In this document: positions 14,917-38,945 of the stretch, piece after piece
Position numbering within the stretch: position 1 is the stretch's first letter
Layout of the letters: every line of letters begins with the position of its first letter
Virus record (IMG/VR): IMGVR_UViG_3300020156_000021
Coordinates: 1 to 64,000 of that record
DNA length: 64,000 nt
Source: a virus
Direction: 5' to 3' (one strand)
The notes under the pieces: generated by a model
Told to the model about the DNA's origin: nothing
Seen by the model: only the letters and a program-made list of their open reading frames with translations
Database searches by the model: none
Position numbers and translations under genes: made by a program

Positions 14917-15056
14917 GGGTAATAGGCTTAGTGGCTAAAACAACCACTCCCCTATCCCCTTCTTATTTCATTTCAAATTTATTTCTATTTTTATTTCAAA
15001 AGACAAATCTTAAAAATTTAACATGAATACACAGTTTCATAACAATAATTTCAAAG

Positions 15057-15635: not shown

Positions 15636-15660
15636 TATAATTATGGAGGATTAATAATTT

Positions 15661-16224: not shown

Positions 16225-16330
16225 TACATCAAATTATCGTTTCATTAAAATTTAGGGTAGGTTTTCTTCTACCTTTCTATTTTTGTTCTATAACAATTAA
16301 ACGTAATATTGTTAATTAAACGGAGGTGGT

Positions 16331-16510: not shown

Positions 16511-16514
16511 TAAT

Positions 16515-17303: not shown

Positions 17304-17390
17304 TATTTTGTTTTTAATTCATTGCAATGCGCATTTTAACAATTTAGAATCAAAAAATTTAAGAATTTATAAAGAAGGAGGAATATAATT

Positions 17391-19507: not shown

Positions 19508-19527
19508 GGATACTAAGTGTATCCCTA
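19505..19527. terminator. Bidirectional terminator hairpin shared by the convergent tailspike and acyltransferase genes
   Basis: Perfect 9-bp stem TAGGGATAC taagt GTATCCCTA. Both stop codons lie inside the stem arms. Confidence 0.7.
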
Positions 19528-20535
19528 AAATCCTAGAACATTAGATGATATTTTGTTTCCGATAGTTTTTCGACATAATGCTATTATTATAAATGAAAGA
19601 AAACTAACAATACAGAACATAATAAAAGTAAAGATAATTTGACTATTTATATATTTTGAAACATTTAATGTGTTGAATAGCATTATAAATATACTATGAA
19701 TAAAAAAGATTCCGAATGAGTAATCTCCTATTTTACTTAAAATATTATGAGAAGATATAGTAAAGGAATTTTTTAAACTTAGTGTAAGCAATATTAAAGC
19801 AAATGATGTTATGATTGAAGTTATTTTGAGTTGAGAAATCGCTAAATCAAATAATTTAAGATTATTGTATATTAATATTCCTTCAACGATAGAAAAACTA
19901 ATTGAGATAACGTAAATAGGAATAATGAGTTTTAGTTTTGATTTGAAAAAATCATATGATATATTCAAATTTCGAATTAGTAAACCAAAATAATAGAATA
20001 GTATCCAAGATGTAAATGGGAAAAATGTATATGGGAAAACTTGTTTAGTGAAAAACGTATATATATAAGTGCATATTATAGTAATTGGTGTGATTGAGAA
20101 TATAAATATTTTAATTACTTTATTATTAATCGTTTTTACCATAATTGGTGTCAAAATAATTAGTTGTGATAAAACAATTATAAAATATAATTGCATTGAA
20201 GTACCACCAGTGAATAATTTTTTAATTATATTATCTGGATTATATTGAGGAAATATTACTGCATGTGTTATTGACCATATTAGATAAGGAGGAATTATTC
20301 TTAATAACCTAGTATAAATAAATTTTAATGGGTTTTGAGTTTCTTCTAATTTTACAAAGTATCCTGATAAAAATAAAAATAGAGGTACAGCAAAATTAAT
20401 CAATTGGCGTATAATAATTTGCGTAATGTCATTACTATAGTTTCCGTTAAATTTTATATTGAATGAATGTATTAATACAACAGATAATATAGCTATACCT
20501 CGTAATAATTGAAAATAATTATCTTTGTTTTTCAT
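19525..20535 (-). CDS. Acyltransferase-3 family integral membrane O-acyltransferase (OatA/Oac-like)
   Basis: N-terminal LLRGIAILSVVLIHS motif and about 10 predicted TM helices over 336 aa. Own extended -10 promoter (TG-n-TATAAT on the minus strand at 20564-20571). Confidence 0.8.
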   Translation of the reverse strand: MKNKDNYFQLLRGIAILSVVLIHSFNIKFNGNYSNDITQIIIRQLINFAVPLFLFLSGYFVKLEETQNPLKFIYTRLLRIIPPYLIWSITHAVIFPQYNPDNIIKKLFTGGTSMQLYFIIVLSQLIILTPIMVKTINNKVIKIFIFSITPITIICTYIYTFFTKQVFPYTFFPFTSWILFYYFGLLIRNLNISYDFFKSKLKLIIPIYVISISFSIVEGILIYNNLKLFDLAISQLKITSIITSFALILLTLSLKNSFTISSHNILSKIGDYSFGIFFIHSIFIMLFNTLNVSKYINSQIIFTFIMFCIVSFLSFIIIALCRKTIGNKISSNVLGF

Positions 20536-20782: not shown

Positions 20783-21307
20783 GTGGTGGTAAAAATGGCA
20801 AATTATCAAATAACTAAATTATCAGAAATAGATTTAATATTAGGGGAAATTATATCGGAAGAAATAATGAAATTTGCTAAAGAAGTTAAGAAAGCATTAA
20901 AAGCAGAACTTAAAGCTAAATTTTATGGCAGACCTGGATATGCTCAAGATAACTCTGGTACAGATTGGTACACTAGAACCTGGGAATTGGTTGATTGTAT
21001 CAGCGTACGTCCGTTAAAGAAAAACGGTAATGAATTTATCACAGAAGTTTTTTATGATACTGACAAAATGAATACATATCCAACAGATGGACACGAATGG
21101 TCTAAACATGAAAGTATTACAACTGGAACAGATGTTCGTTTAATGATTCCATTTTGGATCGAATTTGGACAGGATTCTCCTTTATATTCTTGGGGTGAAT
21201 TTAATATTGTTGGTGATTTAACTGAACGTCTTATAGATGATAGAGCCTTATTACAACATTTCATGAGTGCTTTAACTAAGAAAGGATTCAAATGTATCGC
21301 AAGCTAA
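20783..21307 (+). CDS. Hypothetical protein (possible tail-completion / HK97 gp10-like)
   Basis: 174-aa ORF; ATG 20795 (MANYQITK) is an alternative start. IPFWIEFG weakly resembles the gp10-family (V/I)EFG motif. Followed by two terminators. Confidence 0.45.
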   Translation: MVVKMANYQITKLSEIDLILGEIISEEIMKFAKEVKKALKAELKAKFYGRPGYAQDNSGTDWYTRTWELVDCISVRPLKKNGNEFITEVFYDTDKMNTYPTDGHEWSKHESITTGTDVRLMIPFWIEFGQDSPLYSWGEFNIVGDLTERLIDDRALLQHFMSALTKKGFKCIAS

Positions 21308-21310
21308 TAT

Positions 21311-21335
21311 GAGTGGGGTCTTCCCCACTCTTTTT
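21311..21335 (+). terminator. Rho-independent terminator
   Basis: GAGTGGGG tctt CCCCACTC followed by TTTTT. Confidence 0.85.
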
Positions 21336-21355
21336 GATTTTGATTGTAGATAGTG

Positions 21356-21382
21356 GACATCTCAAAAGAGGTGTCTATTTTT
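21356..21382 (+). terminator. Second tandem terminator
   Basis: GACATCTC aaaa GAGGTGTC (one G-U pair) followed by TATTTTT. Confidence 0.6.
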
Positions 21383-21499
21383 GTGTGATCAAATGGATTG
21401 CATACAGCAGGATAGGTCTGTACAGCCGATAAACACAAGTCCTAGTGCTTCCTGCTTATTTGTTTTTAGGACGTATTATACGAGAGGACGGTATATAAT

Positions 21500-22693
21500 A
21501 TGAAAGAAAATTGGTCAGATGATGAATTATTAAATATTTTAAAGGATTATTATATTAAAAATAATAAAATCCCTAAACAACAAGAAATAAAACCTATGAA
21601 TGGATTACCATCATTTAGTGTATATTATAAAAGGTTTGGAAATTTGAAAAATATATTAAATGAATTAAATATTAGTACAGATGATGATAAATTCAATAGA
21701 AAACATTATACAGATCAAGAATTACTAAATTTATTAAATGAAGAAACAGTAAATCATTTAGAAAATAATATATATTTAATAAGTGAAAGAGAATTTGATT
21801 TACATGAACAATTACCTCATAGTAGTATATATCAAAGACGATTTGGTGGTATAAAAAATGCCTATAATCTTATTGGTTATAATTTTGATCAATTTAATAA
21901 TCAAGCATTGGAACACAATATGATTATTAAATTTAAATTATTAGCTAAAGAATTAGGCCACACTCCTAATAGTAGAGAAATAGACAAATATAGTAAATTG
22001 AATAAATGTTATGCTACTAAAACTTATGCTGAACATTTTGGTAGTATATATAAATTACAGGTTTTGTGCGCTATGATACCCACAAAAATGGGTATTAATA
22101 GAACTCCCGAAGAAATGCTATTAGATTTGAAAAAGCTAGGTCAATATATAAATGATATTCCTACGGCAGATGATATAGATGCATGTGAATTTACATGTTG
22201 TAGTTTACAATATTTAAAAATCTTTGGTGGTATGGAAAATTCTTTATTATTGGCAGGGTTTCCAAAAGACAAAATTAAAAAGAAATGGATATTAACTAAA
22301 GGAAAAACAAAGTGTTTATCGAAATATGAATATAGAATTGCAACTATTTTAGAAGAAAATTCATTTCAATTTGATAAAGATACTTATTACAAAGATGTAA
22401 TATATAATTTTAATAAAAAATATAAATTTGATTTTATTGTTTATTATAAAAATAAAATAAATTACATTGAAATCTTTGGGATACAAGATAATGAAACTTA
22501 CTATACAAAAGCAAAAGAAAAAATTAGTATATGCAAAGAAAATAATATTCCTTTAATATGCCTTTACCCTAAAGATTTTTGGTCTATAAGTAATTTAAAT
22601 TTATTACAGTTATTAATTAATAAAATAAATTCTAATATGTATTATGAGTTTAGTGATGATTATTTTAAAAAGGAAGTGGTTATTAATGGCTAA
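21500..22693 (+). CDS. HEAR (homing-endonuclease-associated repeat) protein with C-terminal PD-(D/E)XK-like nuclease module
   Basis: Repeated W/Y..(D/E)ELL..L......(K/R)IP........LPS...Y.(K/R)RFG....A units (e.g. WSDDELLNILKDYY...LPSFSVYYKRFGNLKN). C-terminus SKYEYRIA...KFDFIV...YIEIFG. Paralog of 28068..29423. Confidence 0.65.
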   Translation: MKENWSDDELLNILKDYYIKNNKIPKQQEIKPMNGLPSFSVYYKRFGNLKNILNELNISTDDDKFNRKHYTDQELLNLLNEETVNHLENNIYLISEREFDLHEQLPHSSIYQRRFGGIKNAYNLIGYNFDQFNNQALEHNMIIKFKLLAKELGHTPNSREIDKYSKLNKCYATKTYAEHFGSIYKLQVLCAMIPTKMGINRTPEEMLLDLKKLGQYINDIPTADDIDACEFTCCSLQYLKIFGGMENSLLLAGFPKDKIKKKWILTKGKTKCLSKYEYRIATILEENSFQFDKDTYYKDVIYNFNKKYKFDFIVYYKNKINYIEIFGIQDNETYYTKAKEKISICKENNIPLICLYPKDFWSISNLNLLQLLINKINSNMYYEFSDDYFKKEVVING

Positions 22694-23711
22694 AATAACT
22701 AAAATTAAGTATTTTACCGAAGAGCGCAAAGCAAAAATTAATCCTGAAAATCAAGCTAAATATAATAAATATCTCAAATCAAATATTATAAAAAACAAAG
22801 ATGTTGAATTTTCAACTTTTGCCACATATTCTTCCAACTTTATGCAATTTCTAGTTTATCTTTCTGAAGAATGGGATAATATTGATTTATATTCTGAAGA
22901 GTTCTTTAAAAATGCTGTTGATATAATGGAAGGGTTTATTAGTTTCTGTGTTGACGTTTTACAGAATAATAAAAAAGCAGTCAATAACAAATTAGCTGCT
23001 GTTTCAACATTTTATCTTTGGTCAATGAAACGTGGATTAATAGATAGACATCCTTTTGATAAGAAACTTGATAGAATGAAAAATGCTAATGATGAGCATA
23101 TTATTAATTCATATTTTTTAACTGATGAACAAATAGAAAAAGTACGTGAAGGTCTAAAGGATGAAAAGAAATTCGATGTTGTTGATAAACTTTTATTTGA
23201 GATTATGTTAGATAGTGCAAATAGAATAGGTGCTATTGATAGACTTAAAATAAGTAACTTAGACATGGATAATTGTGTTTTTACTGACATAAGAGAAAAA
23301 CGTGGATATCACGTTGAGGTATCCATATCAGAGGAAACCCTTCAACATATTCAAGAGTGGTTTGAAATGAGAAAAGATTTAGATAATCTTCAAGTAGATG
23401 CTATATTTATTAGTCGTTATGGGCATGAGTTCCGTAAAATGGCTAGGGGAACACTACAGAGAAGAATTCAAAAAATCGGAACGATACTTGGTCTAGAAGA
23501 TTTTCACAGCCATTGTGTGAGAAAAACAAGTTTGAATGGAATTTATGAAAAGACAGGCGATCTTTCTTTAGCAGCTGAAATGGGTAATCACAAAAGTACT
23601 GAAACTACTCGTGCCAGCTATATAAAGCCTGTTTCAAAGGCACAGGTACGTGAAAAAATTAAAGATATGATTAATAAAAGACAACTTCTTGAGCAAATAA
23701 AATCAGAATAA
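22686..23711 (+). CDS. Tyrosine recombinase / phage-integrase-family protein
   Basis: Catalytic signature DSANRIGAI (R), HSHCVRKT (HxxR), GNHKS (H) and RASYIKP (Y). ATG 22686 (MAKITKIKYF) overlaps the HEAR gene stop at 22691-22693. The tracked ORF begins at 22644. Confidence 0.85.
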   Translation: MAKITKIKYFTEERKAKINPENQAKYNKYLKSNIIKNKDVEFSTFATYSSNFMQFLVYLSEEWDNIDLYSEEFFKNAVDIMEGFISFCVDVLQNNKKAVNNKLAAVSTFYLWSMKRGLIDRHPFDKKLDRMKNANDEHIINSYFLTDEQIEKVREGLKDEKKFDVVDKLLFEIMLDSANRIGAIDRLKISNLDMDNCVFTDIREKRGYHVEVSISEETLQHIQEWFEMRKDLDNLQVDAIFISRYGHEFRKMARGTLQRRIQKIGTILGLEDFHSHCVRKTSLNGIYEKTGDLSLAAEMGNHKSTETTRASYIKPVSKAQVREKIKDMINKRQLLEQIKSE

Positions 23712-23732
23712 AATCTCTATTTTGTTTCACAT

Positions 23733-23752
23733 ATAGGGTCTTCCCTATTTAT
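23733..23752 (+). terminator. Short terminator-like hairpin after the recombinase gene
   Basis: ATAGGG tctt CCCTAT followed by TTAT. Confidence 0.5.
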
Positions 23753-23781
23753 AAAATAAAAAATACAAGGAGGAAATTGAA

Positions 23782-24051
23782 ATGAATTGTGATGGATTGA
23801 AAACTAATTATCATAGTATCCCTTCTCATGAACTGGATACTACAACTGCTGAAAGAGGTATATTCTTTTTACTAAAGAATAACTTCGTAAAAATCAGTGC
23901 CTACTATGAAATTGAAGCACAAAAATTAATTAAAGCATTAAAAGCTTTGGGAATTCAACATAATATTAAATTTGTTGAAGCATTGAATCAGAATTGTCAA
24001 GCAACTTATGAATTTTCTTTGAAGAATTTTAAGGATGACAGGGAGAGTTAA
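23782..24051 (+). CDS. Hypothetical protein
   Basis: 89-aa ORF with AAGGAGG RBS. Confidence 0.55.
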   Translation: MNCDGLKTNYHSIPSHELDTTTAERGIFFLLKNNFVKISAYYEIEAQKLIKALKALGIQHNIKFVEALNQNCQATYEFSLKNFKDDRES

Positions 24052-24059
24052 CATCTCCC
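24041..24059. terminator. Shared hairpin between convergent genes
   Basis: GGGAGA gttaaca TCTCCC followed by CATTTT. Lies between the stops at 24049-24051 (+) and 24064-24066 (-). Confidence 0.5.
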
Positions 24060-24063
24060 CATT

Positions 24064-24720
24064 TTAATATTGATATCTTATTGTAAATTTCGGGTCAGTA
24101 ACTTGATATTCAAAACTAACCATATTTCTGCCTGTAGTACCTACTGGCTGTACAAGTTCATTAATTTTTTGACCATTTACTGCAATACCTTCAGTTACAG
24201 CAGGATCAATATTAGCTCCAATAGGCATAATTACAGTCATTTGTACTTTGCTCCCTCCAGGCATTCCAAGCCCGTCAAATGGCAATACAACTTTGAAATC
24301 AAAAGCGTTAGTGCCTTTAATTGGAAATAACTTATAATCATAAGCAAGATGGTAAAGATTTTGTGAACCAGAAACAGGAGTAAATGCTTTCTTGATCATA
24401 ATGGCACGAAGCATTAACTTACTGGCATCATTAATAACCTCTTGTAAGTTACCTGCTTCTGCTTGTTGGATTATATCCTGTGTCCCTTCCATTACTTTTT
24501 GGGCAGACATAGGATACATTTCAAGATTTGTTGCTTTAAAAATCTCAAGTACAGGTTCACTCACGCTAGTTCCACTTGGTAAAAACCATTGTTGTTCTGG
24601 TGTAAGTGGTACATCAGTTTGAAGAAGTATCTCAACATGTACCATATCAAATTGATTTCCATTAAAGCGAGAAGTATTGTGTAACATAGCTGTCAAATCT
24701 TGAAGCCTAATATTAGCCAT
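24064..24720 (-). CDS. Hypothetical 218-aa protein, GC-richer orphan (no family recognised)
   Basis: Long ORF with GGAGG RBS (minus strand), its own TTGACA-N17-TACAAT promoter and a terminator. Codon composition is visibly GC-richer than the neighbours. No signal peptide or TM segment. Confidence 0.7.
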   Translation of the reverse strand: MANIRLQDLTAMLHNTSRFNGNQFDMVHVEILLQTDVPLTPEQQWFLPSGTSVSEPVLEIFKATNLEMYPMSAQKVMEGTQDIIQQAEAGNLQEVINDASKLMLRAIMIKKAFTPVSGSQNLYHLAYDYKLFPIKGTNAFDFKVVLPFDGLGMPGGSKVQMTVIMPIGANIDPAVTEGIAVNGQKINELVQPVGTTGRNMVSFEYQVTDPKFTIRYQY

Positions 24721-24760
24721 TAGCTCGACCTCCTATTTAATAGATTTATTTTACAGCTAA

Positions 24761-24789
24761 ATTGTACGCTTGTATATTATTAATGTCAA
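24761..24789 (-). promoter_or_regulatory. Sigma-A-type promoter for 24064..24720
   Basis: Minus strand reads TTGACA (24789-24784), 17-nt spacer, TACAAT (24766-24761). Confidence 0.6.
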
Positions 24790-24812
24790 TAAATATAATT
24801 TTTATAGTTATA

Positions 24813-24841
24813 TTGACAATATTTTTAAGTTGGTATACAAT
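24813..24841 (+). promoter_or_regulatory. Sigma-A-type promoter, divergent from the previous one
   Basis: TTGACA (24813-24818), 17 nt, TACAAT (24836-24841). Its -35 and spacer ATTGACA(A)TATTTTTAAG nearly match the promoter at 40301. Confidence 0.6.
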
Positions 24842-24881
24842 GAGTTAGGCACTTTATACATAAATTTGTGTGAGGTGCTTT

Positions 24882-25055
24882 ATGTGTTTATATCAAGATA
24901 AACAAAAACTAATATCCATGTGTATTAACCTAATCAATTATTCCAATAAACTTTATGCTGAAAGTAAAATAACCCTAGTTCAGTACAAAGATTTAACTAA
25001 ATTAAAGCTACAATTCCTACAAAACTGTAATATACATATAGATATTCTAATATAA
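24882..25055 (+). CDS. Possible 57-aa protein
   Basis: First ORF downstream of the 24813 promoter. ATG 24882 follows GAGG; the tracked start is GTG 24870. No recognisable domain. Confidence 0.35.
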   Translation: MCLYQDKQKLISMCINLINYSNKLYAESKITLVQYKDLTKLKLQFLQNCNIHIDILI

Positions 25056-25150
25056 TTATATTGAGATTGTATATACGTTTATCCTCTATCCCCTATCCTA
25101 TTCCCATACATACAGATTTAGGTTATAATAGTTGTACGGAGGTATGGTAA

Positions 25151-25510
25151 ATGGATAAGAATAATAAATTCCCAAGTAAGAAACCATTATCAAAATCTAA
25201 TAAAGAAAATACATTAATAATACGTATGGATTCTGATTTAAAACAAGCTATAGCAGAAATAGCTTTAAAACATAACACTACTGTATCTGAATATGTTAGA
25301 CAATTAATTATTAGAGAAATTAAGTCTGACACAATGATGTATATAAACTCTGTAAAATCTAAAACTCGTTATACAGTTACAGAAGAAATTTTGGAAAGTG
25401 TAATTAGAGAAAGTATTAATGACTTCGCTGATAAATTAGAAGAACATGGATTACTAAAAAAACAAGAAAATAAAAGCATTCTTGAGAATATTAAAGATAA
25501 CAAAGAATAA
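25151..25510 (+). CDS. Ribbon-helix-helix (CopG/Arc/MetJ-like) DNA-binding protein
   Basis: TLIIRMDSDLKQAIAEIALKHNTTVSEYVRQLIIREI fits the beta-strand/helix/helix RHH pattern. GGAGG lies 8 nt upstream of the ATG. Confidence 0.65.
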   Translation: MDKNNKFPSKKPLSKSNKENTLIIRMDSDLKQAIAEIALKHNTTVSEYVRQLIIREIKSDTMMYINSVKSKTRYTVTEEILESVIRESINDFADKLEEHGLLKKQENKSILENIKDNKE

Positions 25511-25516
25511 TGGGCT

Positions 25517-25575
25517 TATATACATTGTTTATACGTTTTATATACATTGTATATATATTCTTCTTGTCATATAAT
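25517..25575 (+). promoter_or_regulatory. Two 12-bp direct repeats (TATATACATTGT) overlapping a TTGTAT-N17-TATAAT promoter
   Basis: Repeat copies at 25517-25528 and 25539-25550, 22 bp apart. -35 at 25547-25552 and -10 at 25570-25575. Related half-motifs ATTGTATATA and TATACGTTT recur at 25066-25080, upstream of the RHH gene. Confidence 0.5.
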
Positions 25576-25624
25576 AATGATGTAAGGTAAAACTTACCAT
25601 TATTTATGTAAAGGGGTCAATCAT

Positions 25625-25936
25625 ATGTCATCTATCTATTATCGTATCGTAGACCAAGACAATCATTTCGTAGATTATTATACCTTCCAACAAGTACCTC
25701 AAGGTCGTGGGAAACCGTCAAAATGGTTTTATTCATCTGTAACTGGTTATACCTCTGGTGCTACACTCTACCCTGATACTACAGGAAGTATTCGTGAATT
25801 ATTAGATCATTTGATACATATGAACGAAAAATTGAAGCAAGATAAGCAGTTTAAAATTGTAGCTGTGGATAAAGATGAGTTGAGATTTGACGGTAGGGTC
25901 ATAACTGATGAAATTAAGGTAGGTGAAGTGAAATGA
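25625..25936 (+). CDS. Hypothetical protein
   Basis: 103-aa ORF after the AAAGGGG RBS region. Overlaps the next gene by 4 nt (ATGA). Confidence 0.55.
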   Translation: MSSIYYRIVDQDNHFVDYYTFQQVPQGRGKPSKWFYSSVTGYTSGATLYPDTTGSIRELLDHLIHMNEKLKQDKQFKIVAVDKDELRFDGRVITDEIKVGEVK

Positions 25937-26181
25937 TTATAGAAACCTACTCTGATGATATGGTTGAAAAATACAAAGGTAAAAAGTGTTTAGTAATAGC
26001 GGATTATCGAAGCGTGAATTATAATGATGATTGTGAAACTGAAATAAATAAAGTTGCTGATAGATATGGGATGGATTTATACCCTGTTTGTGGAGAGATG
26101 AATGTGATAATTATAAGATGTTTAAATAAATATTACGGTGATTATGACGTTTGGTTGGTTGAAGATGGTCTAACTAATTAA
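25933..26181 (+). CDS. Hypothetical acidic protein
   Basis: 82-aa ORF, apparently translationally coupled to 25625..25936. Confidence 0.55.
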   Translation: MIIETYSDDMVEKYKGKKCLVIADYRSVNYNDDCETEINKVADRYGMDLYPVCGEMNVIIIRCLNKYYGDYDVWLVEDGLTN

Positions 26182-26244
26182 CCATTACAACCCCAACCAT
26201 CCCCAACCCTCCTCAACCCTTCCCTCCAAAATCCTTCCCATTTC
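26169..26244 (+). repeat. 76-nt G-free, C-rich tract with degenerate tandem decamers
   Basis: No G between 26169 and 26244. The core 26181-26240 is 32/60 C. It contains CCCCAACCAT, CCCCAACCCT and CCTCAACCCT in tandem (26191-26220). Confidence 0.9.
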
Positions 26245-26293
26245 GCCAAAAGGTGGTATAATATGAGTAGTATTTTGTGTGGAGGTTGATGGG

Positions 26294-26944
26294 ATGAGTG
26301 AGAATACGAATGTAAGTACTGAATTGTGTGAAAAATCTTCTGAACTAGATGAAAAGATTGTACCATACCATACGTTGGAATTGCTTAATGAAATGCAAAA
26401 GAGAAGTATTATGAATACATTTATTTATGCTATTAATGGTATGCGTAGTATTTCAAATGGTAAAATATTGAGGCTTATTAAAAATTTATATATTGTTTGC
26501 AGATTGCATTATCTTTCAATAGAGAATAAAAAGAAATGTAATTTACATCCTCAAAAATTTCACCCTATGCAGCCTAAATATGGCGAAATATATAATGCTA
26601 TAATAACAGAAAATGTAGGCAGTGAATTAAGCAATAATCATTTGGTTATTATTATTTCTAATGAAAAAACCAATTTGTTTGCAGAAAAGGTTAATGCTGT
26701 TCCAATTGAAGGAGATGGCAATGCTGTACCTAAATATCTAGTAAAATTAGAAAATTCAGATTTAGAATATGGAAAATTAGATAAAAGTCCCTCACGAATA
26801 ATCATTCCAGAAATAATTACGATTGATAAAGCTCGTTTGGGTTTAAAAGTTGGTCAAATTAAAAACGAAAAGATTATTGAAATTCAGCGAAAAATATTGG
26901 AACAATTTTCTATAAATATTAGACAATTAGTTGTTGACAAATAG
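26294..26944 (+). CDS. MazF/PemK-fold toxin-like protein with ~95-aa N-terminal extension of unknown function
   Basis: PKYGEIYNAIITENVGSELSNNHLVIIISNEKTN...VNAVPIEG...SRIIIPEIITIDKARL matches the PemK pattern (GdIy..d....GsE..g.RP.vvvS.....n....v.v.PiT...S.v....i.tidk.RL). ATG 26294 is 8 nt after GGAGG. Extended -10 TGgTATAAT at 26254-26262. Confidence 0.65.
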   Translation: MSENTNVSTELCEKSSELDEKIVPYHTLELLNEMQKRSIMNTFIYAINGMRSISNGKILRLIKNLYIVCRLHYLSIENKKKCNLHPQKFHPMQPKYGEIYNAIITENVGSELSNNHLVIIISNEKTNLFAEKVNAVPIEGDGNAVPKYLVKLENSDLEYGKLDKSPSRIIIPEIITIDKARLGLKVGQIKNEKIIEIQRKILEQFSINIRQLVVDK

Positions 26945-27023
26945 AATGTGTGATGGTATTATAGTATTGTAATAATGTTATCAAGTCTATTTTTTATAGA
27001 CATGGCTTTTATAGCTTTTCAAG

Positions 27024-27052
27024 AAAGACCTCCCCAACCCGGAGGTCTTTTT
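27024..27052 (+). terminator. Rho-independent terminator
   Basis: Perfect 10-bp stem AAAGACCTCC ccaaccc GGAGGTCTTT running into a T-run. Confidence 0.85.
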
Positions 27053-27070
27053 CATATCTAAAATCTTCTA

Positions 27071-27100
27071 TTGAATACCCAAGCCCATCTAGCATATAAT
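27071..27100 (+). promoter_or_regulatory. Sigma-A-type promoter for 27143..27427
   Basis: TTGAAT (27071-27076), 18-nt spacer, TATAAT (27095-27100). Confidence 0.55.
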
Positions 27101-27142
27101 AATAGAACAGACGTTCGATATTGATATGGAGATGAATTTTAT

Positions 27143-27427
27143 ATGCCATTCGGGTTTGAGGTACGACAATCAGAGCAAGACAAATTTGATATTTGTGATC
27201 CAGGTGAACCTATAGAGGTGATAGCTATATCATATAAGAACGGTATGGTTAAGCCTTTGTCTATTGTGGTTGATGATGTGGAATATAAGGTTGAGAGGGT
27301 TTTGGATTATGTGAATTGTCGGGAATTGAAACAGAGGATGATTGGATTCAGGTATAGGTGTTTGGTTGGTGGGAGAGTTGTGGTGTTGGTGTATGATGGG
27401 GAGAGATGGTGGTTAGTGGGGAAATAG
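27143..27427 (+). CDS. Hypothetical 94-aa protein, GC-richer
   Basis: ORF downstream of its own promoter with a G/T-rich coding strand. Its 3' end overlaps the convergent gene by 15 nt. Confidence 0.55.
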   Translation: MPFGFEVRQSEQDKFDICDPGEPIEVIAISYKNGMVKPLSIVVDDVEYKVERVLDYVNCRELKQRMIGFRYRCLVGGRVVVLVYDGERWWLVGK

Positions 27428-27793
27428 GGTGTTCGATAGCTTTTTTAATTCAGATATCCCTTCGTATTCCGGGTGGGTATCAAAAGTTAGATTGATAGCA
27501 TTTACCAAAAGTTTGAATTTTTTTTGTAGTGATAGTTTAGGTCTTCTGTTGATTTTATTGTTAACATACTTACCAGACCATTCTTCCGCAAAGGATTCAG
27601 TTTTTTCCAGTGTTTTGAAAGTCTTTTTCTTTTTAAGCGAGTTATAAACTATTTTCTTATCTTTCGTAACTTCCAACCAAAAAAAATATTTTTTGTCATT
27701 GAAATAGATGGTGAAAGTATGGCCTCGTTTTAGAGCCGTATGGACATAATCAGGTATCCAGGTTGGACTAATGTTGCGTTTTCTAAATTTCAT
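27413..27793 (-). CDS. Hypothetical basic 126-aa protein
   Basis: GTGAGG RBS on the minus strand. Own promoter TTGACA-N17-TACACT (minus strand, 27862-27834). Confidence 0.55.
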   Translation of the reverse strand: MKFRKRNISPTWIPDYVHTALKRGHTFTIYFNDKKYFFWLEVTKDKKIVYNSLKKKKTFKTLEKTESFAEEWSGKYVNNKINRRPKLSLQKKFKLLVNAINLTFDTHPEYEGISELKKLSNTLFPH

Positions 27794-27833
27794 TTTTTAC
27801 CTCACAAATGAATAGTTGTTATTAATTAGTATT

Positions 27834-27862
27834 AGTGTAAATTATATGGAGAAGTTTGTCAA
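27834..27862 (-). promoter_or_regulatory. Sigma-A-type promoter for 27413..27793
   Basis: Minus strand reads TTGACA (27862-27857), 17 nt, TACACT (27839-27834). Confidence 0.5.
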
Positions 27863-27984
27863 ATAAAAATTGGTTAAATATTGATAAATAATTGAATCTG
27901 TAGAGATATGGGTTCTTTTTATTATAGATTTTTAGTAGAGGTTATCAGCGCAGATAATTAGGGGAGTTCCCTACTCTATTATTG

Positions 27985-28020
27985 ATGAGCCGTTTCTCCT
28001 ATGGACGGCTCATTTTATTT
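27985..28020 (+). terminator. Rho-independent terminator-like hairpin
   Basis: ATGAGCCGT ttctcctatgg ACGGCTCAT followed by TTTATTTTT. Confidence 0.7.
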
Positions 28021-28067
28021 TTACATAGGTATTATTAAAATAATTTATTCCATAGGAGGTTTAATGT

Positions 28068-29423
28068 ATGAGTGAAAAGGAAAAGTTAAAACTTATTTTA
28101 ATTAATTATGCTAAAGAGTTGGGTATATCTCCAAAACAAAGAGATATTAATAGTAATAAAACAATTCCTAGTACAACTGTATTTTATAGAGTTTTTGGCA
28201 CTTTGTCATGGTCTAAAATTTTAGCTGAATGTGATTTGGATGTAAATTTGTATCATTATTATGATAAACAAGAAGCATTAAATAAATTAAAAGAGTTTTA
28301 TAATCAACTAGATAGAATACCTACAAGAGAAGATTTTAAGACTTATAATTTTAAACCACATCAAGGATGGTATGCTGAAACTTTTGGAAGTTATGAAGAA
28401 GCTTGTAAATTAGTAGAATTAAGTAAAAAACCTTCTTTAAAATCACTTAATAAAATAAATATATCTATTTGTGAGTTAAGAAAATTAGCTAACGAGTTAA
28501 ATAGATGTCCTACAGTGAAGGAATATGATAATATTATACATAAAGGTTTAAAAAGAAGGGCTTTAGAAAATAGTTTAGGTATAAAGTATAATGATATTTG
28601 CCGAAAATATGTTCTTGATTATATAGTACAAAATATTCATGGTGATATTACTAAAGAGGATATAATAAATGAAATTAAAAGAATTCATAATATAATAGGT
28701 AGACCACCAATGTTTAAAGAATTAAAAAAATATAATTGTTGTTTTAGTTATAATGCTTTTAATAGAGTTTTTAATGGATTATCTTATAATCAAATTATTG
28801 AAAGTTTAGGATGGATACCAACAGGTTCAACAACTTTAGCAAGAACTGAGGAATCTATGTTAACTGATTTTTATAACTTGTATAAACAACTACAGAGAAT
28901 TCCCACAGATGATGATTTAAATGAAAATGGTAAGACAGCGACAGCTACTACATATAAAAAATATTTTAGGTCAGTAAAAAATATTTGTCAATTATTAGAT
29001 ATTGATTATAATTTATATATTAACAATAGTGGTTTTGGTAAGGTAATGTATGACATGAATGGTGAATTATGTAGATCAACAATGGAAAGAGATATTACCA
29101 ATTATTTTATTGTTAATAATATATTTTATATAAAGGAATTTTCGTATTCAAACTTAATCGAAAATGATACTAGGAGGTTTGATTGGAAAATACTGGTTGA
29201 TGGAAAGTGCTACTTTATTGAATATTTTGGCATGTATGATATTAATAAGAATAATAAAATAATTAATAAATATGCTAATAAAACTAAAAAGAAAATAAAA
29301 TCACTTTATAAAAATGGGTATTATGATCAATGCATTTTTTTATTTCCTAATATGATTAAAAATAAGTCATTTGATGAAGTGTTTAAAAAATATTTCAGAA
29401 TAAAAGAGTGCGTAAATTTATAA
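28068..29423 (+). CDS. HEAR-repeat protein with C-terminal nuclease-like module (paralog of 21500..22693)
   Basis: At least five repeats of the type L..Y...(L/G)...P...D........PS...(F/Y).(R/K).FG. C-terminus STMERDI...RFDWKIL...YFIEYFG parallels the other HEAR gene. Confidence 0.65.
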   Translation: MSEKEKLKLILINYAKELGISPKQRDINSNKTIPSTTVFYRVFGTLSWSKILAECDLDVNLYHYYDKQEALNKLKEFYNQLDRIPTREDFKTYNFKPHQGWYAETFGSYEEACKLVELSKKPSLKSLNKINISICELRKLANELNRCPTVKEYDNIIHKGLKRRALENSLGIKYNDICRKYVLDYIVQNIHGDITKEDIINEIKRIHNIIGRPPMFKELKKYNCCFSYNAFNRVFNGLSYNQIIESLGWIPTGSTTLARTEESMLTDFYNLYKQLQRIPTDDDLNENGKTATATTYKKYFRSVKNICQLLDIDYNLYINNSGFGKVMYDMNGELCRSTMERDITNYFIVNNIFYIKEFSYSNLIENDTRRFDWKILVDGKCYFIEYFGMYDINKNNKIINKYANKTKKKIKSLYKNGYYDQCIFLFPNMIKNKSFDEVFKKYFRIKECVNL

Positions 29424-29433
29424 TACGCACTCT
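29405..29433. terminator. Hairpin spanning the overlapping stops of two convergent genes
   Basis: Perfect 10-bp stem AGAGTGCGTA aatttataa TACGCACTCT. Both stop codons (29421-29423 on + and 29418-29420 on -) lie in the loop. Confidence 0.65.
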
Positions 29434-29951
29434 CCCCTATTTTCTATCTTTAATTTATTAAATAGACTAATAAAATTTCCTAAAGGTTGCCCATTATAAT
29501 AATTTTTAAATAGGCAATCAATTTGTACATCATTTTGTTCATATGATAGTAGAATGTAACTATTATTAATTTCAGTCTTCTTTTTTAAACCAAAAGCTAA
29601 AATACCTAATGCAAAGAGTCGAGTTAAAGTGACATCTTTTTGTATCTCTGATTCAGACTTTATTTCATAACGTGTAATTTGATTAATTGAAATTTTATTA
29701 ATAATTTCATTTCTATTTTTATAGAAATATAAGTTATTATCTTTTCTTATTTCTATAAAGATTTTTTCATTGGCTTTAAAGTAGGGGTATCCACCCAAAT
29801 GTATTAGCCCAAATATTTCAATCATTCCGTCTTGAATGAATTGATTATTAATATCTTTCATCTGTTTATTTGCATTTGATCTTCCGTAAGTGGCACATAT
29901 AACAATATAGATAATTATCATTAAAATTATACCAATAAATATATATTCCAT
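29418..29951 (-). CDS. Membrane protein (N-terminal TM plus a second hydrophobic segment), unknown function
   Basis: MEYIFIGIILMIIIYIVICATY N-terminal TM and LFALGILAFGL. GGTGGTG RBS and its own TTGAAT-N17-TATAAT promoter. Confidence 0.65.
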   Translation of the reverse strand: MEYIFIGIILMIIIYIVICATYGRSNANKQMKDINNQFIQDGMIEIFGLIHLGGYPYFKANEKIFIEIRKDNNLYFYKNRNEIINKISINQITRYEIKSESEIQKDVTLTRLFALGILAFGLKKKTEINNSYILLSYEQNDVQIDCLFKNYYNGQPLGNFISLFNKLKIENRGECVL

Positions 29952-29970
29952 ATTAACACCACCTTAATAT

Positions 29971-29999
29971 ATTATAACCAAATATTTGAAATTATTCAA
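29971..29999 (-). promoter_or_regulatory. Sigma-A-type promoter for 29418..29951
   Basis: Minus strand reads TTGAAT (29999-29994), 17 nt, TATAAT (29976-29971). Confidence 0.55.
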
Positions 30000-30033
30000 G
30001 AGAAGCATTATTAGTTTTGCTTCTCTTTTTTTT
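29998..30033 (+). terminator. Plus-strand rho-independent terminator immediately upstream of the tape measure gene
   Basis: Perfect 10-bp stem AAGAGAAGCA ttattagttt TGCTTCTCTT running into an 8-T run. It lies inside the tracked N-terminal extension of the 29986 ORF. Confidence 0.65.
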
Positions 30034-30057
30034 ATATTCTTGAGAGGAGGAATATCA

Positions 30058-33000
30058 TTGGATAAAATCGGCGTTTTATTAAAAACTATTTTATCTCAGC
30101 CAACAGATGCAGAAATAAATGCATTTGTCAAAAAAGTTCAAACACAATTAGGTAAAGTTCCTTTGGGTAGCAATGGTGGATTTCTTCCTAAACAAGAAGA
30201 GATTGATATTTATATTAAAAAATTACAGAATTCGCTTCAACGGATGCAATTTAAAACACCTAAAGTCTTTGATAATGAGGGTGTTAAAAAAGAAATTGAA
30301 ATCTTAAATAAAGAGTTTGAAAAGTTAAGAAATAATGCTACTTCCATTAAACAAGTTGGATTACAATTTGATAATTTAAAAACCAAAGTTTCAGAAGTTT
30401 CAAGCCATTTAAAGAATACTACGAAAGATGGTTATAATTTTGCACAAATGCTTGAACTTGCAGGTAAGAAAATTGCAATTTGGGGTATTAGCACTCAGAT
30501 GGTTTACGGAACGTGGAGACAAATTAAGGAAGGTATTCAATATATTACAGACCTTGATAATGCCCTTAATGAAATTCGTATAGTTACAAACAAAAATCAA
30601 GAAGAAGTAAATAAATTAGCTTTAGCCTACAATAATTTATCTAAAATAATGAAAGTAAGTACAAAAGACGTTACTTCAGAAGCAGCAAATCTATTTAGGC
30701 AAGGTTTAAATGAATCACAAGTAGAAGAAAGAATGAAAGCTATAATTAAATACGCTAAGATTTCAAGTATTTCGCTTGCAGATAGTGATAAAATAATAAC
30801 TGCTACAGCAAATGCTACTGGTGAAAGCGTTCAAAAAATTATTGATATATTTGCACTGTTAGGGGACACAACTGCTTCGGGTGCGGATGAAATAGGCGAA
30901 TCACTTCAGCGAGTAGCAAGTGCAGCCGAAAATAGTGGATTAAGTCTGGAAAAAAGTGCAAGTTGGCTGGCAACAATTTCCAGTATTACCAGAGAAAGTT
31001 CGTCAACTATTGGTCGAAGTTTAAATAGTTTAATTAGCCGATATGAACAAATAAAATCTACTGGATTTAATTCTGAGGACGCAACAAAGTTAAATGATGT
31101 AGTTCAAGCACTTTCTAAGATTGGTATAACAGCAACGGATACAGCAGGTCAATTGATGCCAATAGCTGATGTAGTAGATACTTTAGGTGCTAAATGGGAT
31201 ACTCTAACAAAAAATGAGAAATCATATATAGCTACAACATTAGGTGGAACATACCAACGTAACAGATTAATTACTTTATTGGATAATTATTCTACATCAA
31301 TTACCAATTATGAAACTGCTTTAAATTCAGCCGGAGTCGCAGACCAGAAATTCGCAATCTATCAAGATAGTGTGGCAGCCAAGCTAGATGCTGTAAAGGC
31401 ATCTTGGGAGGGTTTTTGGCAATCATCACTGAATTCCAATTTAATAAAAGCTACTTTAGATTCTTTATCTGGTTTAATTAATACATTTGGTAATCTTGAA
31501 ACGGTAGTAACTTCGCTTATAACAGTATTTGCTTTGTGGAAAGGCACTGCTGTAACAAAATGGATTGGTGGTCTTAAGTTAGGGCTACAAGATTTACGAG
31601 TTACTATAATTGCTAATCGTGGTGCAGTAATCGGAATGACGGAAGCCGAAATAGCTGCTGCAACAGCTACGAAAGGTTTAACATTATCATGGAATGCTTT
31701 AAAAATAGCTTTCTTGTCAAATCCTATTGGTATGATAACTACAGTTATATTAACTGCTGTTACTGCAATTGATATATTTAACGCTAAACAAGAGGAAATC
31801 AAACAACGAGCAGCAGAAACGGCTTCTAAATTGGAACAAGAAGTATCGTCATTACAAAATTTAAAAACGCAATATGTTGATATTATTAAATCTGGTGATT
31901 TAACTACTGAATCAAAAAATAAATTAAAATCTATTCAAGACCAATTAGTAAAGACATATGGACTTGAAGCAGATGCAATTGATTTAGTAAACGGTAAATA
32001 TAAAGATCAAATAGACGTTATTAATGAAGTAATAGCTAAAAAAGCTAAGGATTATCTCACAAGTCAACAGTCTGTATATCAAGAAGCAGTTAAAGAAATG
32101 AATCAATCGTCAAAGTATAATTTTGGTGTTGGTTCAACATTTATGTCTATTGGTAGAATGACTGATAGAAGTACGATTAATGATGCTGTAAAAGATGCTA
32201 TTGGAAAAAGTTATTCTAGTGCTATTAATTCAGAATCATTAACTTTAGAACAATATAAAAATGTATTACAAAAAGTTATAGATAAACAAAGAGAGTATTA
32301 TGAGACTAAGAAAAAGGGATATATTGGTGATAGTTTACTTGCTGAATTAACCGATGAGTTTAATAGAGTAGATGGGTTAATAAAAGAGAATCAATCTATT
32401 ATAGACAAATACTTAGAACAAAAAAATATCGAAGATTTTTATAATACTTTTAAGGCTAACATTTCAAAAGTCAATGACTTAATGTCTCAATCTGCTAAGA
32501 ATCCTAATAATACAGGATTAACTAAGCAGGTAGAAGATTTATATAATAGTATGATGCAATTGGCTAATTCTAAAGGTAGATTGGCTGATTTTGAGCCATT
32601 TATCAATGATTTGTTTAATAAGACTTCTGATTCTTTAGAAGATACTTCTCAACAAACAGAAGATTTGGCTGCCTCTTTAGAAAAGCTTAACTCCACCATA
32701 TCCGATCAAACCAAAGAACTCTCTACTCTATCTTCAGCCTATTCTACCCTTCACGAAGGTGAATCACTCTCGGCAGACGATATGCTTTCATTAATTACAA
32801 ATTACAAGGATATCGCCACATACATAGCTAATACTAGTGACCTAACTCTCAAAAATGGTGATATAGTTAAGCAAGTCTTTGAAGTAAAGAAGCAAGCAAT
32901 TGTTGATGAATTAGCTCTTGAGAAAGAAAAATACTTAACACTAACAAAATTACAACAAGAGTTTTATGGTTCTAAAACAAACGGCTTAACAGATCAGTGG

Positions 33001-38918: not shown

Positions 38919-38945
38919 TAGTAATATAATAATTTTCTTACTCAA

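Follow-up and report, generated by a model that had tools for sequence, protein, structure and literature searches.

Between 21.3 and 30.0 kb of a 64-kb window, the stretch of DNA analysed here from the 173-kb genome of an SPβ-like siphovirus, the tail genes are interrupted by a block of nuclease, recombinase and small accessory genes. This raises the question of whether the block is a mobile island that has invaded the phage or a variable part of the phage's own gene order. The first-pass annotation had described a single nested element of 8.7 kb, bracketed by two paralogous HEAR nuclease genes. The open reading frames were found where it had placed them, and the block does split the tail genes. 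It is not the sole interruption, however, since a second cluster at 38.9-42 kb, with three perfect 12/12 promoters, also breaks them. We conclude that the block is a hotspot for morons and homing endonuclease genes, not a self-contained mobile island. It is ordinary in kind, being the usual tail-gene gap of SPβ-type phages, and is probably a composite of a backbone recombinase, a hypervariable accessory slot and two homing endonuclease gene insertions.

Three backbone genes delimit and anchor the block.

20795..21307, plus strand: YomN-like backbone gene, 170 aa
22686..23711, plus strand: tyrosine recombinase gene, 341 aa (PF00589 at 1.6e-22)
30058..35145, plus strand: tape measure protein (TMP) gene, right backbone edge (PF10145 in the public gene call; phrog_4211 at 1.5e-80)

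The true left backbone edge lies at 20795..21307, because no conserved gene lies between the YomN-like gene and the recombinase. Its homologs, 23-33% identical, are located directly 5' of the integrase gene in L027, L028, L037, L042 and L045, and those of L042 and L045 carry PF27376 (YomN). The public gene call starts the TMP gene at the same TTG codon, 30058, as the first-pass annotation.

The relatives examined were SPR, Geobacillus E3, Sundance, LC76P1, KKP_3916 and about 15 metagenomic contigs. In every one of them, YomO/YomN-like genes are followed by a tyrosine recombinase gene and then by the TMP gene, and six contigs keep the recombinase in place with no cargo at all. The recombinase thus belongs to the fixed backbone of the phage, at the position of SPβ yomM, and is not, as had been proposed, the island's own gene. 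It starts inside HEAR#1, with an overlap of 8 nt as first described, and retains the catalytic residues R180, H276xxR279, H302 and Y312. In NCBIfam it is matched best by generic Xer-type models, with scores far below their cut-offs. The protein is 82-85% identical to those of L004, L005 and L045, phages in which the tube or TMP shows about 30% identity or gives a short C-terminal match only; L042 has the closest TMP (53%), yet its integrase is unrelated to that of the window. Since the phylogeny of the recombinase disagrees with that of the backbone, the gene has been exchanged horizontally, and "backbone" thus denotes its conserved position rather than vertical descent. DNA similarity to other phages does not extend beyond the recombinase ORF. 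The recombinase, the positional equivalent of SPβ yomM, would serve a late, phage-intrinsic DNA transaction and not cargo mobility; the phage encodes a separate SprA-like large serine integrase at 49779-51407.

Both junctions of the recombinase region hold a HEAR gene, the first preceded by structured non-coding RNA.

21311..21330, plus strand: intrinsic-terminator-like hairpin 3' of the YomN-like gene (-15.9 kcal/mol, z -4.8)
21340..21506, plus strand: conserved structured non-coding leader RNA of about 160 nt, with a terminator-like hairpin, a three-stem domain and an RBS
21500..22693, plus strand: HEAR#1, a probable free-standing homing endonuclease gene (PF18780 at 4e-22; phrog_22655)
28068..29423, plus strand: HEAR#2, a probable free-standing homing endonuclease gene in the slot 5' of the TMP gene (PF18780 at 2.9e-32, five repeats; phrog_22655)

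The RBS of the leader RNA abuts the HEAR#1 start codon. The leader is 76% identical to its counterpart in L018, while the flanking proteins are just 24-55% identical, and it shows compensatory changes in hairpin 1 and stem A. Searches with nhmmer and a covariance model found it only in L018, L019, L050 and L051, and it has no match in Rfam.

HEAR#1, located between the YomN-like gene and the recombinase gene, encodes HEAR repeats and a C-terminal PD-(D/E)xK-like domain. In relatives that lack it, the YomN-like gene lies about 40 nt from the integrase gene, and the DNA homology of the integrase gene with other phages ends, on the HEAR#1 side, at the integrase RBS. HEAR#2 has 53 homologs, including one 53% identical between integrase and TMP in L050 and one 33% identical in E3. 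Its C-terminal domain is predicted by AF2 to be ordered alpha-beta-beta-beta-alpha-beta, with invariant E340, D372, E385 and K409, and its top Foldseek matches are PD-(D/E)xK nucleases, none of them significant. This secondary structure, the invariant acidic residues and the non-significant matches together point to a probable nuclease fold. The two claimed paralogs share PF18780 repeats and phrog_22655 but are only 24% identical, and no DNA-level similarity was found between their genes.

HEAR or HNH genes directly adjoin the integrase gene in L010, L013, L019 and L050, and recur at the YomN/recombinase and recombinase/TMP junctions of other phages. The HEAR#1 site is occupied by a different HEAR gene that is intact in L019, carries an 894-nt deletion in L018 and is reduced in L051 to a remnant followed by a different 751-nt segment; the flanks of this site are 96-99.9% identical among the three. 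Judged from these sequence comparisons, the HEAR genes probably behave as free-standing homing endonuclease genes. HEAR#1 with its leader RNA and HEAR#2 would then be two unrelated insertions, one at each junction of the recombinase region.

The slot between recombinase and TMP holds from 0 to 13 genes among the relatives. It is empty in L018, L020, L025, L027, L028 and L034, where the TMP gene starts 35-105 nt past the integrase gene. One slot gene is present in Sundance, LC76P1, KKP_3916 and L050, three to four in SPR, L011 and L042, seven to eight in L045 and L015, and thirteen in E3. In the window, the slot spans 23.7-30.0 kb and holds 11 genes in 6.3 kb. Besides HEAR#2, it contains the following features.

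23782..24051, plus strand: 89-aa protein, first of a conserved convergent pair, 70-75% identical to 91-aa same-slot genes of L042/L045
24064..24720, minus strand: 218-aa protein of a conserved uncharacterised family (51 homologs, 38-90% identity; no Pfam match)
25151..25510, plus strand: RHH/Arc-like small DNA-binding protein, 119 aa
25625..26181, plus strand: two overlapping small ORFs, 103 aa and 82 aa
26294..26944, plus strand: long PemK/MazF-family protein, 216 aa (PF02452 at 2e-12)
27022..27052, plus strand: terminator-like hairpin 3' of the MazF-like gene (-16.8 kcal/mol, z -4.85)
27143..27427, plus strand: 94-aa protein of a small family (46 representative homologs at E<=1e-3, mostly 75-100 aa)
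27413..27793, minus strand: basic 126-aa protein (ORF; sub-threshold matches only)
29418..29951, minus strand: 177-aa predicted membrane protein directly 5' of the TMP gene (ORF, hydrophobic N-terminus)
29998..30033, plus strand: hairpin and U8, 25 nt 5' of the TMP start (-13.2 kcal/mol, z -2.9 for hairpin 29998-30027)

The 218-aa and 94-aa genes had been taken for GC-richer orphans, a description contradicted by their homologs and by their GC content of 0.32-0.35, which is inside the range of other parts of the window (up to 0.39). The AF2 model of the 218-aa protein has a pLDDT of 92 and no convincing fold match. Its gene resides in the same slot in L042 and L045, where the pair with the 89-aa gene recurs; the 89-aa protein also has weak similarity to the E3 GP25 region. 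The proposed RHH regulator is borne out by weak profile matches to DUF6290, NikA-like proteins, Arc-like repressor and RelB, and the slots of E3, L042 and L045 contain RHH genes as well. The PemK/MazF domain of the 216-aa protein comprises residues 101-209, and a PDB search matches the protein to S. aureus MazF at 2e-6. The MazF fold is thus as first described, but the supposedly novel N-terminus is common to a family of 93 homologs of 180-220 aa, covering about 85% of the query. The 103-aa and 82-aa proteins have no significant match in Pfam, PHROGs, NCBIfam or PADLOC, and no family match was found for the 177-aa protein.

Alignment with related phages reveals presence/absence polymorphism of the slot genes, but no relative was found near enough in DNA to fix the exact points of cargo insertion. 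The idea of an accessory or moron island holds in that the block contains accessory, apparently independently promoted genes absent from related phages; it fails in that they do not form one unit with its own recombinase.

We consider it unlikely that the slot cargo constitutes one coordinated anti-phage defence system, such as an RHH-regulated, MazF-type abortive-infection module with a membrane protein and a nuclease. PemK/MazF-domain and RHH proteins are both present, the E3 slot again holds PemK/MazF and Arc-like genes, and yomJ, in the same SPβ interval, confers resistance to SPβ when expressed ectopically, although it is not conserved (bioRxiv 10.1101/2021.11.22.469490). However, PADLOC finds no defence system in the block, contrary to the suggested defence island, and the genes lie in separate apparent transcription units on both strands, with two other genes between the RHH and MazF-like genes. 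The parts also occur apart elsewhere: a long MazF homolog is found by itself on a plasmid-like contig, next to a ParM-like partition gene, and a homolog of the 218-aa gene resides in a bacterial chromosome. The same gene set was found at no other locus examined.

It is highly improbable that the region is an integron-like platform, whose conserved recombinase would use site-specific recombination to capture gene cassettes and shuffle them into the slot beside it. A tyrosine recombinase gene does always adjoin the cassette-like array of 0 to 13 genes, and the 89-aa/218-aa cassette is located beside the integrase gene here and beside the TMP gene in L042. Against this, the cassette borders have no detected attC-like repeat or common sequence, the recombinase is kept where the slot is empty, its NCBIfam matches are those generic Xer-type models, and homing endonucleases with ordinary illegitimate or homologous recombination suffice to explain the turnover. 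Least probable, and already largely refuted, is that the block of about 8.7 kb is a single integrative element nested in the phage, or a satellite parasitising it: a catalytically complete recombinase, clearly exchanged between distant phages, and the break in the tail genes, with mixed strand orientation, speak for it, but neither repeats, direct or inverted, nor att-like sites were detected at the flanks of the block, the recombinase persists in cargo-free relatives, the supposed HEAR boundaries share no DNA identity and vary, like the cargo, independently of the recombinase, and DNA similarity to other phages stops at the recombinase ORF.

The composite of backbone recombinase, slot and insertions is also marked by regulatory signals, all of which are called as consensus matches. 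Sigma-70-like 11/12 matches number five in 19-31 kb and 0 in the head and tail region at 1-19 kb. Three of them, at 24813(+), 24789(-) and 26934(+), occupy intergenic DNA 5' of genes: the 218-aa gene has a strong consensus match (TTGACA-17-TACAAT at 24789-24761, minus strand), and the 94-aa gene has TTGACA-17-TATTAT with TG at 26934 (plus strand). Promoter-like sites also occur at 27862-27834 for the 126-aa gene and at 29999-29971 (TTGAAT-17-TATAAT) for the 177-aa gene. The claim of many units, each with its own promoter and terminator, is supported by these matches and by verified hairpins, but promoter-like sites in total are about as numerous as expected by chance (90 versus 85.9 +/- 9 in shuffled sequence). 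Terminator-like sites number 9, compared with 3.0 +/- 1.8 in shuffles, and such hairpins also lie 3' of the capsid gene, the tube gene and others.

The hairpin at 21311..21330 has an 8-bp stem, including 6 GC pairs, and a U-run follows it. A second hairpin at 21352-21379 (-15.5 kcal/mol, z -3.8) also precedes a U-run. The two proposed tandem terminators are therefore stable, but the second is the first hairpin of the leader RNA. The terminator reported before the TMP gene is likewise a stable hairpin with U8. That these sites shut off the late operon is doubtful, because the same contig encodes a YonO-like RNA polymerase, for which SPβ provides a precedent. Late tail-gene expression would probably continue across the block by YonO-type read-through, and the host-type terminators would mainly insulate morons from read-through by the host polymerase.

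Free-standing homing endonuclease genes, such as the seg and mob genes of T4, are known from large lytic phages. Like them, the HEAR genes are intergenic insertions adjoining conserved genes and are patchy among close relatives; a given site can be occupied by several nuclease families, gene conversion and mosaicism are associated with it locally, and structured leaders or terminators lie 5'. Unlike seg and mob products, they have predicted HEAR and PD-(D/E)xK-like domains instead of GIY-YIG or HNH, and their homing role is putative. Morons are an established concept in lambdoid and other temperate phages. Such morons are also single genes or small units with a sigma-70-type promoter and a terminator, within late operons and absent from relatives, whereas the putative morons here are concentrated in one conserved hotspot adjoining a recombinase gene. 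The 216-aa protein shares the PemK/MazF fold with type II MazEF/PemIK modules, from which it differs in its N-terminal extension of about 100 aa and in lacking an adjacent overlapping antitoxin gene.

One of the closest counterparts is the SPβ/SPR yomM-yomI interval (yomL, yomK, yomJ). Its order is alike, running from tube, XepA-like, pectin-lyase-like and YomO/YomN genes through an integrase-family gene and a few accessory genes, including one on the reverse strand, to TMP. Within it lies an immunity gene that is not conserved, yomJ or "d protein", and integration is performed by a separate large serine recombinase, SprA in SPβ (bioRxiv 10.1101/2021.11.22.469490). SPR spr_51 is equated with yomJ on the basis of gene order and of its label in the record, "immunity protein". 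The slot in the window is larger (11 genes versus 3), its content is unrelated, and homing endonuclease genes are present. The window recombinase belongs to another subfamily, with the canonical Arg-II where the SPβ/E3 type has Lys, and pairwise comparison detects no similarity between the two types.

Geobacillus virus E3 has nearly the same architecture in GP28-GP42, with an integrase, a slot of about 6.8 kb and TMP. Encoded in its slot are an Arc-like repressor, a HEAR-nuclease homolog (33% identical to HEAR#2), a PemK-superfamily protein of 212 aa, a MazF-like protein and an immunity protein. When the two loci are compared pairwise, homology can be detected for the HEAR protein alone; BLASTP finds no similarity between the long PemK proteins of the two phages, and the E3 integrase is of the SPβ type. 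In both SPR and E3, the "immunity protein" gene adjoins TMP.

We propose that the slot is a site where independently promoted and terminated genes, or morons, gather and turn over. By analogy with SPβ yomJ, these genes are most likely expressed by the host RNA polymerase from the prophage, and they would serve superinfection immunity or exclusion, or toxin-type functions.

The window lies within a 172,923-bp metagenomic contig (ENA ERZ27257314 k141_474783) and has a G+C content of ~28%. Its head and tail genes are of the SPβ type (YonG_N, YonD_N, YonB, YomX, YomW, YomV, and YomU_Tube), and the set also includes XepA, YOMG_N plus Prophage_tail, and a PhageMin_Tail tape-measure protein (TMP). 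The portal protein shares 24-29% identity with its counterparts from large siphoviruses of Firmicutes, for example phiCD211, Tsamsa, and Sundance. The features to which the analysis refers are the following.

13969-14916: DUF7487 gene (phrog 'homing endonuclease'), directly 3' of the tube gene
20795-21307: gene of a 170-aa YomN-like protein
21340-21506, plus strand: leader RNA element
21500-22693: first HEAR gene
22686-23711: tyrosine recombinase gene
23782-24051, plus strand: 89-aa gene
24064-24720, minus strand: 218-aa gene
26294-26944, plus strand: MazF-like gene
27143-27427, plus strand: 94-aa gene
28068-29423: second HEAR gene
29418-29951, minus strand: membrane protein gene
30058: TTG start codon of the TMP gene
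46481-47464, plus strand: Xer-like tyrosine recombinase gene, between the tail and lysis genes
49779-51407, minus strand: large serine recombinase gene

The first-pass annotation described the block at 21.3-30.0 kb as a nested ~8.7-kb accessory island splitting the tail operon. The observation is largely real. All listed ORFs are present, the gene at 22686-23711 encodes a tyrosine recombinase (PF00589, 1.6e-22) and overlaps the first HEAR gene by eight nucleotides, and the three named hairpins are stable and followed by U-runs. As first framed, the block would represent a new kind of phage-parasitising element. The evidence points instead to a familiar pattern, a conserved hotspot where morons and homing endonucleases accumulate. 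Most likely, the block combines three components, namely a conserved recombinase gene, a hotspot for morons, and two independent insertions of probable homing endonuclease genes, one of which is accompanied by a conserved leader RNA.

The recombinase had been assigned to the island itself, but it occupies the same position in six contigs with nothing between it and the TMP gene, and in all isolates examined. The catalytic residues R180, H276, R279, H302, and Y312 are in place and, according to the alignment, are kept in homologs of the window type. A tblastn search identified homologs in large SPβ-like phages, where the annotated gene order is in every case tube, two proteins of ~140-180 aa, integrase, a small, varying number of genes, and TMP. 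The homologs from phages LC76P1 (Lysinibacillus) and Sundance (Brevibacillus) are 52% and 27% identical to the recombinase of the window, respectively. Three related loci that were reached via cargo proteins (L042, L045, and L050) encode Pfam YomO and YomN immediately 5' of the integrase, and the 170-aa protein of the window is homologous to the YomN proteins preceding those integrases. The shared gene order and the YomN homology thus identify the recombinase as a positional constant of the phage group, and gene order makes it the putative equivalent of SPβ yomM. The YomM proteins of the SPβ/E3 type (SPR spr_54 and E3 GP28) differ from it in the alignment by a lysine in place of the second catalytic arginine (HLFK versus HCVR), which suggests that their catalysis may be atypical. 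For yomM, no relevant publication came up in literature searches, comparison of the recombinase with NCBIfam gave only generic Xer-type matches below threshold, and scans for related loci recovered none with the YomN-like protein in viral sequences and none with the integrase in genomes.

The identities of the recombinases conflict with those of the structural genes. In L004 and L005, the recombinase is 82-85% identical to that of the window, while the tube protein or TMP is ~30% identical; the DNA identity of ~79% is limited to the recombinase ORF and starts at its ribosome-binding site (RBS). L045 has a recombinase with 83% and RusA with 78% identity, and its TMP match comprises only 117 C-terminal residues (43%). 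L018 is a closer structural relative (RusA 60%, TMP 35-72%), yet its recombinase is only 55% identical, and L042, which has the closest TMP (53%), contains an integrase without detectable similarity to that of the window. Because of these discordant identities, the 'backbone' at this place is best described as a conserved slot holding interchangeable recombinase alleles, and the recombinase gene itself is exchanged horizontally. We speculate that gene conversion driven by the endonucleases of neighboring homing genes could be the source of the allele exchange.

The window contains three recombinase genes in all, and no tRNA genes as possible integration targets. The large serine recombinase resembles SprA of SPβ, and both the coding strand and the GC skew flip at its position. 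The Xer-like tyrosine recombinase includes an N-terminal SAM-like domain (PF00589, 1.7e-34).

The variable part of the region is the interval from the recombinase to the TMP gene (hereafter slot), with the first HEAR gene as a separate insertion on the left. A metagenome scan with the integrase alignment yielded 33 loci. The slots of relatives hold 0-13 genes of largely non-homologous content, as expected of an accessory hotspot, whose genes are absent from the same position in related phages.

Table. Content of the slot between recombinase and TMP genes in related phages and contigs.
LC76P1: one gene
Sundance: one gene
Alicyclobacillus KKP_3916: one gene
Bacillus phage SPR (genus Spbetavirus): three genes behind an integrase-family protein, of which one is in reverse orientation and one is annotated as 'immunity protein'
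Geobacillus virus E3: 13 genes behind a site-specific integrase
L025, L027, L028, L034: empty; an ORF of 2,460-2,753 aa begins 35-80 nt past the integrase
L018, L020: TMP begins ~100 nt past the integrase
L011: four small genes
L015, L016: eight genes in 6.3 kb
L026: ~9.5 kb

The long ORFs that follow the integrase in L025, L027, L028, and L034 match the TMP of the window. The slot of E3 contains an Arc-like repressor, a HEAR homolog, a 212-aa PemK-superfamily protein, a MazF-like protein, and an immunity protein. The corresponding interval of SPβ contains yomJ ('d protein'), a non-conserved gene of the SPβ-like phages that confers resistance to SPβ when expressed from a plasmid (bioRxiv 10.1101/2021.11.22.469490). 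By analogy, yomJ would be the best functional precedent for the slot. In close relatives, the TMP gene is broken up into two or three ORFs with gaps of ~300 nt (L018 4124-10724, L020 1143-7323, and E3 GP42/GP43 at L007 16290-23931), and that of the window is intact. The gaps could be introns, endonuclease scars, or frameshifts.

Both proteins flanking the block contain HEAR repeats, as had been proposed (PF18780, 4e-22 for the first and 2.9e-32 for the second, above the gathering score), and both match phrog_22655. The two genes can hardly be called paralogs, as they share 24% protein identity and no DNA similarity. HEAR repeats are a DNA-binding module typical of homing endonucleases. The second HEAR protein has 53 homologs, all with PF18780 as the sole domain, and its C-terminal 120 residues include invariant S337, E340, D372, E385, G388, and K409. 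The AF2 model folds the C-terminus into an alpha-beta-beta-beta-alpha-beta core (local pLDDT 85-94). Searches with the C-terminus against Pfam and PDB sequences gave no matches. Foldseek found nothing significant for the full-length model (best E 0.075); the top of this non-significant list consists nearly entirely of PD-(D/E)xK enzymes (Bax1, AddAB, Can2, McrC, R2 endonuclease, Hjc, RecU, and BamHI). The C-terminal domain is thus a probable nuclease, as judged from the model.

At the genomic level, the HEAR genes behave like homing endonuclease genes of the free-standing kind. The integrase start is overlapped by a HEAR gene in L013, and in L010 such a gene directly follows the integrase. L050 has an HNH-type gene upstream of the integrase, and between integrase and TMP a HEAR gene with 53% identity to the second one of the window. 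Presence/absence polymorphism is seen at the homologous site of three other contigs, rather than in the phage of the window itself: the HEAR gene (341 aa) is intact in L019, a deletion of 894 nt has left only its C-terminal remnant in L018, and in L051 the remnant is followed by a different 751-nt segment, within flanks that are 96-99.9% identical. Further homing-endonuclease-like genes of the window are the DUF7487 gene at 13969-14916 and an ORF running off the window start (1-612), which has a nuclease motif similar to that of the former, DIAFPELKIALEYSGSGH, and is publicly called as DUF7487 (weak).

The segment 21340-21506, which separates the YomN-like gene from the first HEAR gene, is 76% identical to its counterpart in L018, and the flanking proteins are far more diverged. 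By nhmmer, covariance-model, and pattern searches, copies besides that of the window were identified only in L018 (2647-2808), L019 (368-529), L050 (4146-4312), and L051 (~2480-2655). Every copy is positioned between the YomN-like gene and the integrase, and ends at the start codon of the endonuclease gene wherever that gene is intact. The endonucleases themselves differ: between the proteins of the window and L019, the identity is 30% and confined to the nuclease domain, and the L050 protein is of the HNH type. The leader is composed of a terminator-like hairpin, a three-stem domain, and an RBS. Hairpin 1 contains five pairs with double compensatory changes, single-sequence folds agree on the three-stem domain, and stem A covaries (AGCAGGA/UCCUGCU versus ACGUGA/UCACGU). 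The second 'terminator' of the first-pass annotation is indeed a stable hairpin, but it is hairpin 1 of this leader. The loop AAGUCCUA, itself invariant, is complementary to the RBS as well as to a downstream UAGGAC that is likewise invariant, which suggests that the leader controls translation of the endonuclease. Rfam returned a single sub-threshold Phe_leader match in 19-31 kb and no family that fits the leader; the leader pattern had no matches in genome contigs, and the covariance model revealed no extra copies among 42 loci.

A different reading of the composite is that the recombinase in the yomM position actively builds the adjacent slot, as an integron-like cassette platform in the tail operon, with the homing endonucleases and the leader RNA as accessory parts of the exchange machinery. 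If true, the tail-operon recombinase would be a cassette-building platform within SPβ-like phages. The adjacency of the recombinase and the cassette-like turnover of the slot are what speak for it. In integrons, imperfect inverted repeats of the attC type mark each cassette boundary and an attI site adjoins the integrase, whereas the intergenic regions of the slot share no repeat family, and we consider the platform very improbable. A phage satellite or single integrative element is contradicted by the retention of the recombinase where cargo is absent, by direct repeats across 20-31 kb that are AT-rich and at chance level, with no attL/attR pair or target-site duplication, and by the lack of recurrence of the whole block, parts of which recur elsewhere as single genes or as the pair of 89-aa and 218-aa genes only. 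Paired 11-bp inverted repeats of the Xer/Cre type are absent from the window, where the search found only terminators and chance AT-rich matches, and no phage record matched the 20-31 kb segment in a megablast search.

The block is not the only interruption of the tail genes, as a second accessory cluster at 38900-42000 splits them between the YomG-like and Dit-like genes. Hairpins follow other late genes too. The second cluster contains three perfect 12/12 TTGACA-17-TATAAT promoters (38951, 40301, and 40867), behind which are genes of a trypsin-like peptidase, a 162-aa protein, and a Bro-N/KilAC antirepressor-like protein. About 450 nt of the antirepressor-like gene are 76-77% identical to L004 DNA immediately 5' of the integrase. 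Upstream of the block, the 6.6 kb from the tube gene to the YomN-like gene (13969-20535) hold endonuclease, RusA, Laminin_G-like, XepA-like, pectate-lyase-like, and reverse-strand acyltransferase genes. XepA-like and enzyme genes are found at this position in SPR as well, and this segment is therefore also largely SPβ-typical.

The cargo of the slot includes several gene families with wider distribution. The genes of the 89-aa and 218-aa proteins are arranged convergently, and the slots of L042 and L045 contain the same pair (65-75% identity). The 218-aa protein was regarded as an orphan, but has 51 homologs at 38-90% identity, and is also encoded in Desulfitobacterium hafniense chromosomes (L043 and L044 9001-9648) beside an M78 peptidase gene and IS elements/transposases. 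The family has no Pfam match and is better conserved than the phage structural proteins. Its AF2 model has a pLDDT of 92 and pTM of 0.85, and Foldseek searches of PDB and BFVD yielded no convincing structural neighbor, just beta-sandwich matches with low TM and one unnamed viral homolog of 131 aa. A predicted TTGACA-17-TACAAT promoter and the reverse orientation of the gene suggest its expression by the host polymerase. The 94-aa gene, the other supposed orphan, has 46 representative homologs.

The MazF assignment holds (PF02452, 2e-12; Staphylococcus aureus MazF, PDB 4mzm, 2e-6), and the N-terminus that had been considered novel is common to a family of 93 proteins of 180-220 aa. Toxin-antitoxin systems of the MazEF type have the cognate antitoxin gene immediately adjacent and co-transcribed. 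No antitoxin gene adjoins the MazF-like gene of the window: the nearest ribbon-helix-helix (RHH) gene, whose assignment is consistent with its matches although these are weak, ends 784 nt upstream with two genes between. A MazF homolog on the plasmid-like contig L046 also stands alone, with no small gene adjoining. In agreement with the first-pass annotation, PADLOC detected no named defence system, although it gave one spurious Cas3d match (E 0.0026); apart from this, PADLOC and NCBIfam searches with all cargo proteins produced only generic Xer-type and RelB-like matches below threshold. Searches with the other small cargo proteins and the membrane protein gave no informative matches. Pairwise BLASTP of window proteins against the neighbors in Sundance, LC76P1, SPR, and E3 was of too low sensitivity to be informative.

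Promoters and terminators were predicted from consensus matches and hairpins. Terminator-like sites are more numerous than in shuffled sequences (9 versus 3.0 ± 1.8). In total, promoter-like sites are not enriched, with 90 against 86 by shuffling, but 19-31 kb contains five 11/12 matches as against none for 1-19 kb, and three of them are intergenic, just upstream of genes. The SPβ polymerase YonO transcribes 37 late genes as one operon starting upstream of yonK, and is devoid of the flap domain, which takes part in hairpin-dependent termination (PMC5467207). The contig of the window encodes, ~7.4 kb upstream of the YonG-like gene (L048 1-2556), a 901-aa protein that is a candidate for a late-transcribing single-chain RNA polymerase of the YonO type. 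It has no Pfam match and aligns to SPR spr_85, which occupies the yonO position two genes upstream of an HBsu-like gene (E 5e-10), with CDTDSD opposite FDNDGD of the DxDxD motif. The 797-aa ORF at 42953-45346 was rejected as such a polymerase, as it follows the Dit-like gene and the real candidate is upstream of the window. We hypothesize that the host RNA polymerase is the main target of the 21.3-kb and 30.0-kb hairpins, in which case they would not shut off late expression, as had been assumed.

A very wide range of phages retains, within the tail module, a tyrosine recombinase with an intact set of catalytic residues, which is swapped horizontally and is a probable target of homing endonucleases. 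The structured leader RNA, which precedes different endonuclease genes, and the 218-aa family, whose confidently predicted fold looks novel, are both uncharacterised and well conserved. SPβ-like phages are an active model system, and the interval from the yomM-type recombinase to the TMP gene offers a predictable site in which to search them for cargo of the superinfection-immunity or defence type.
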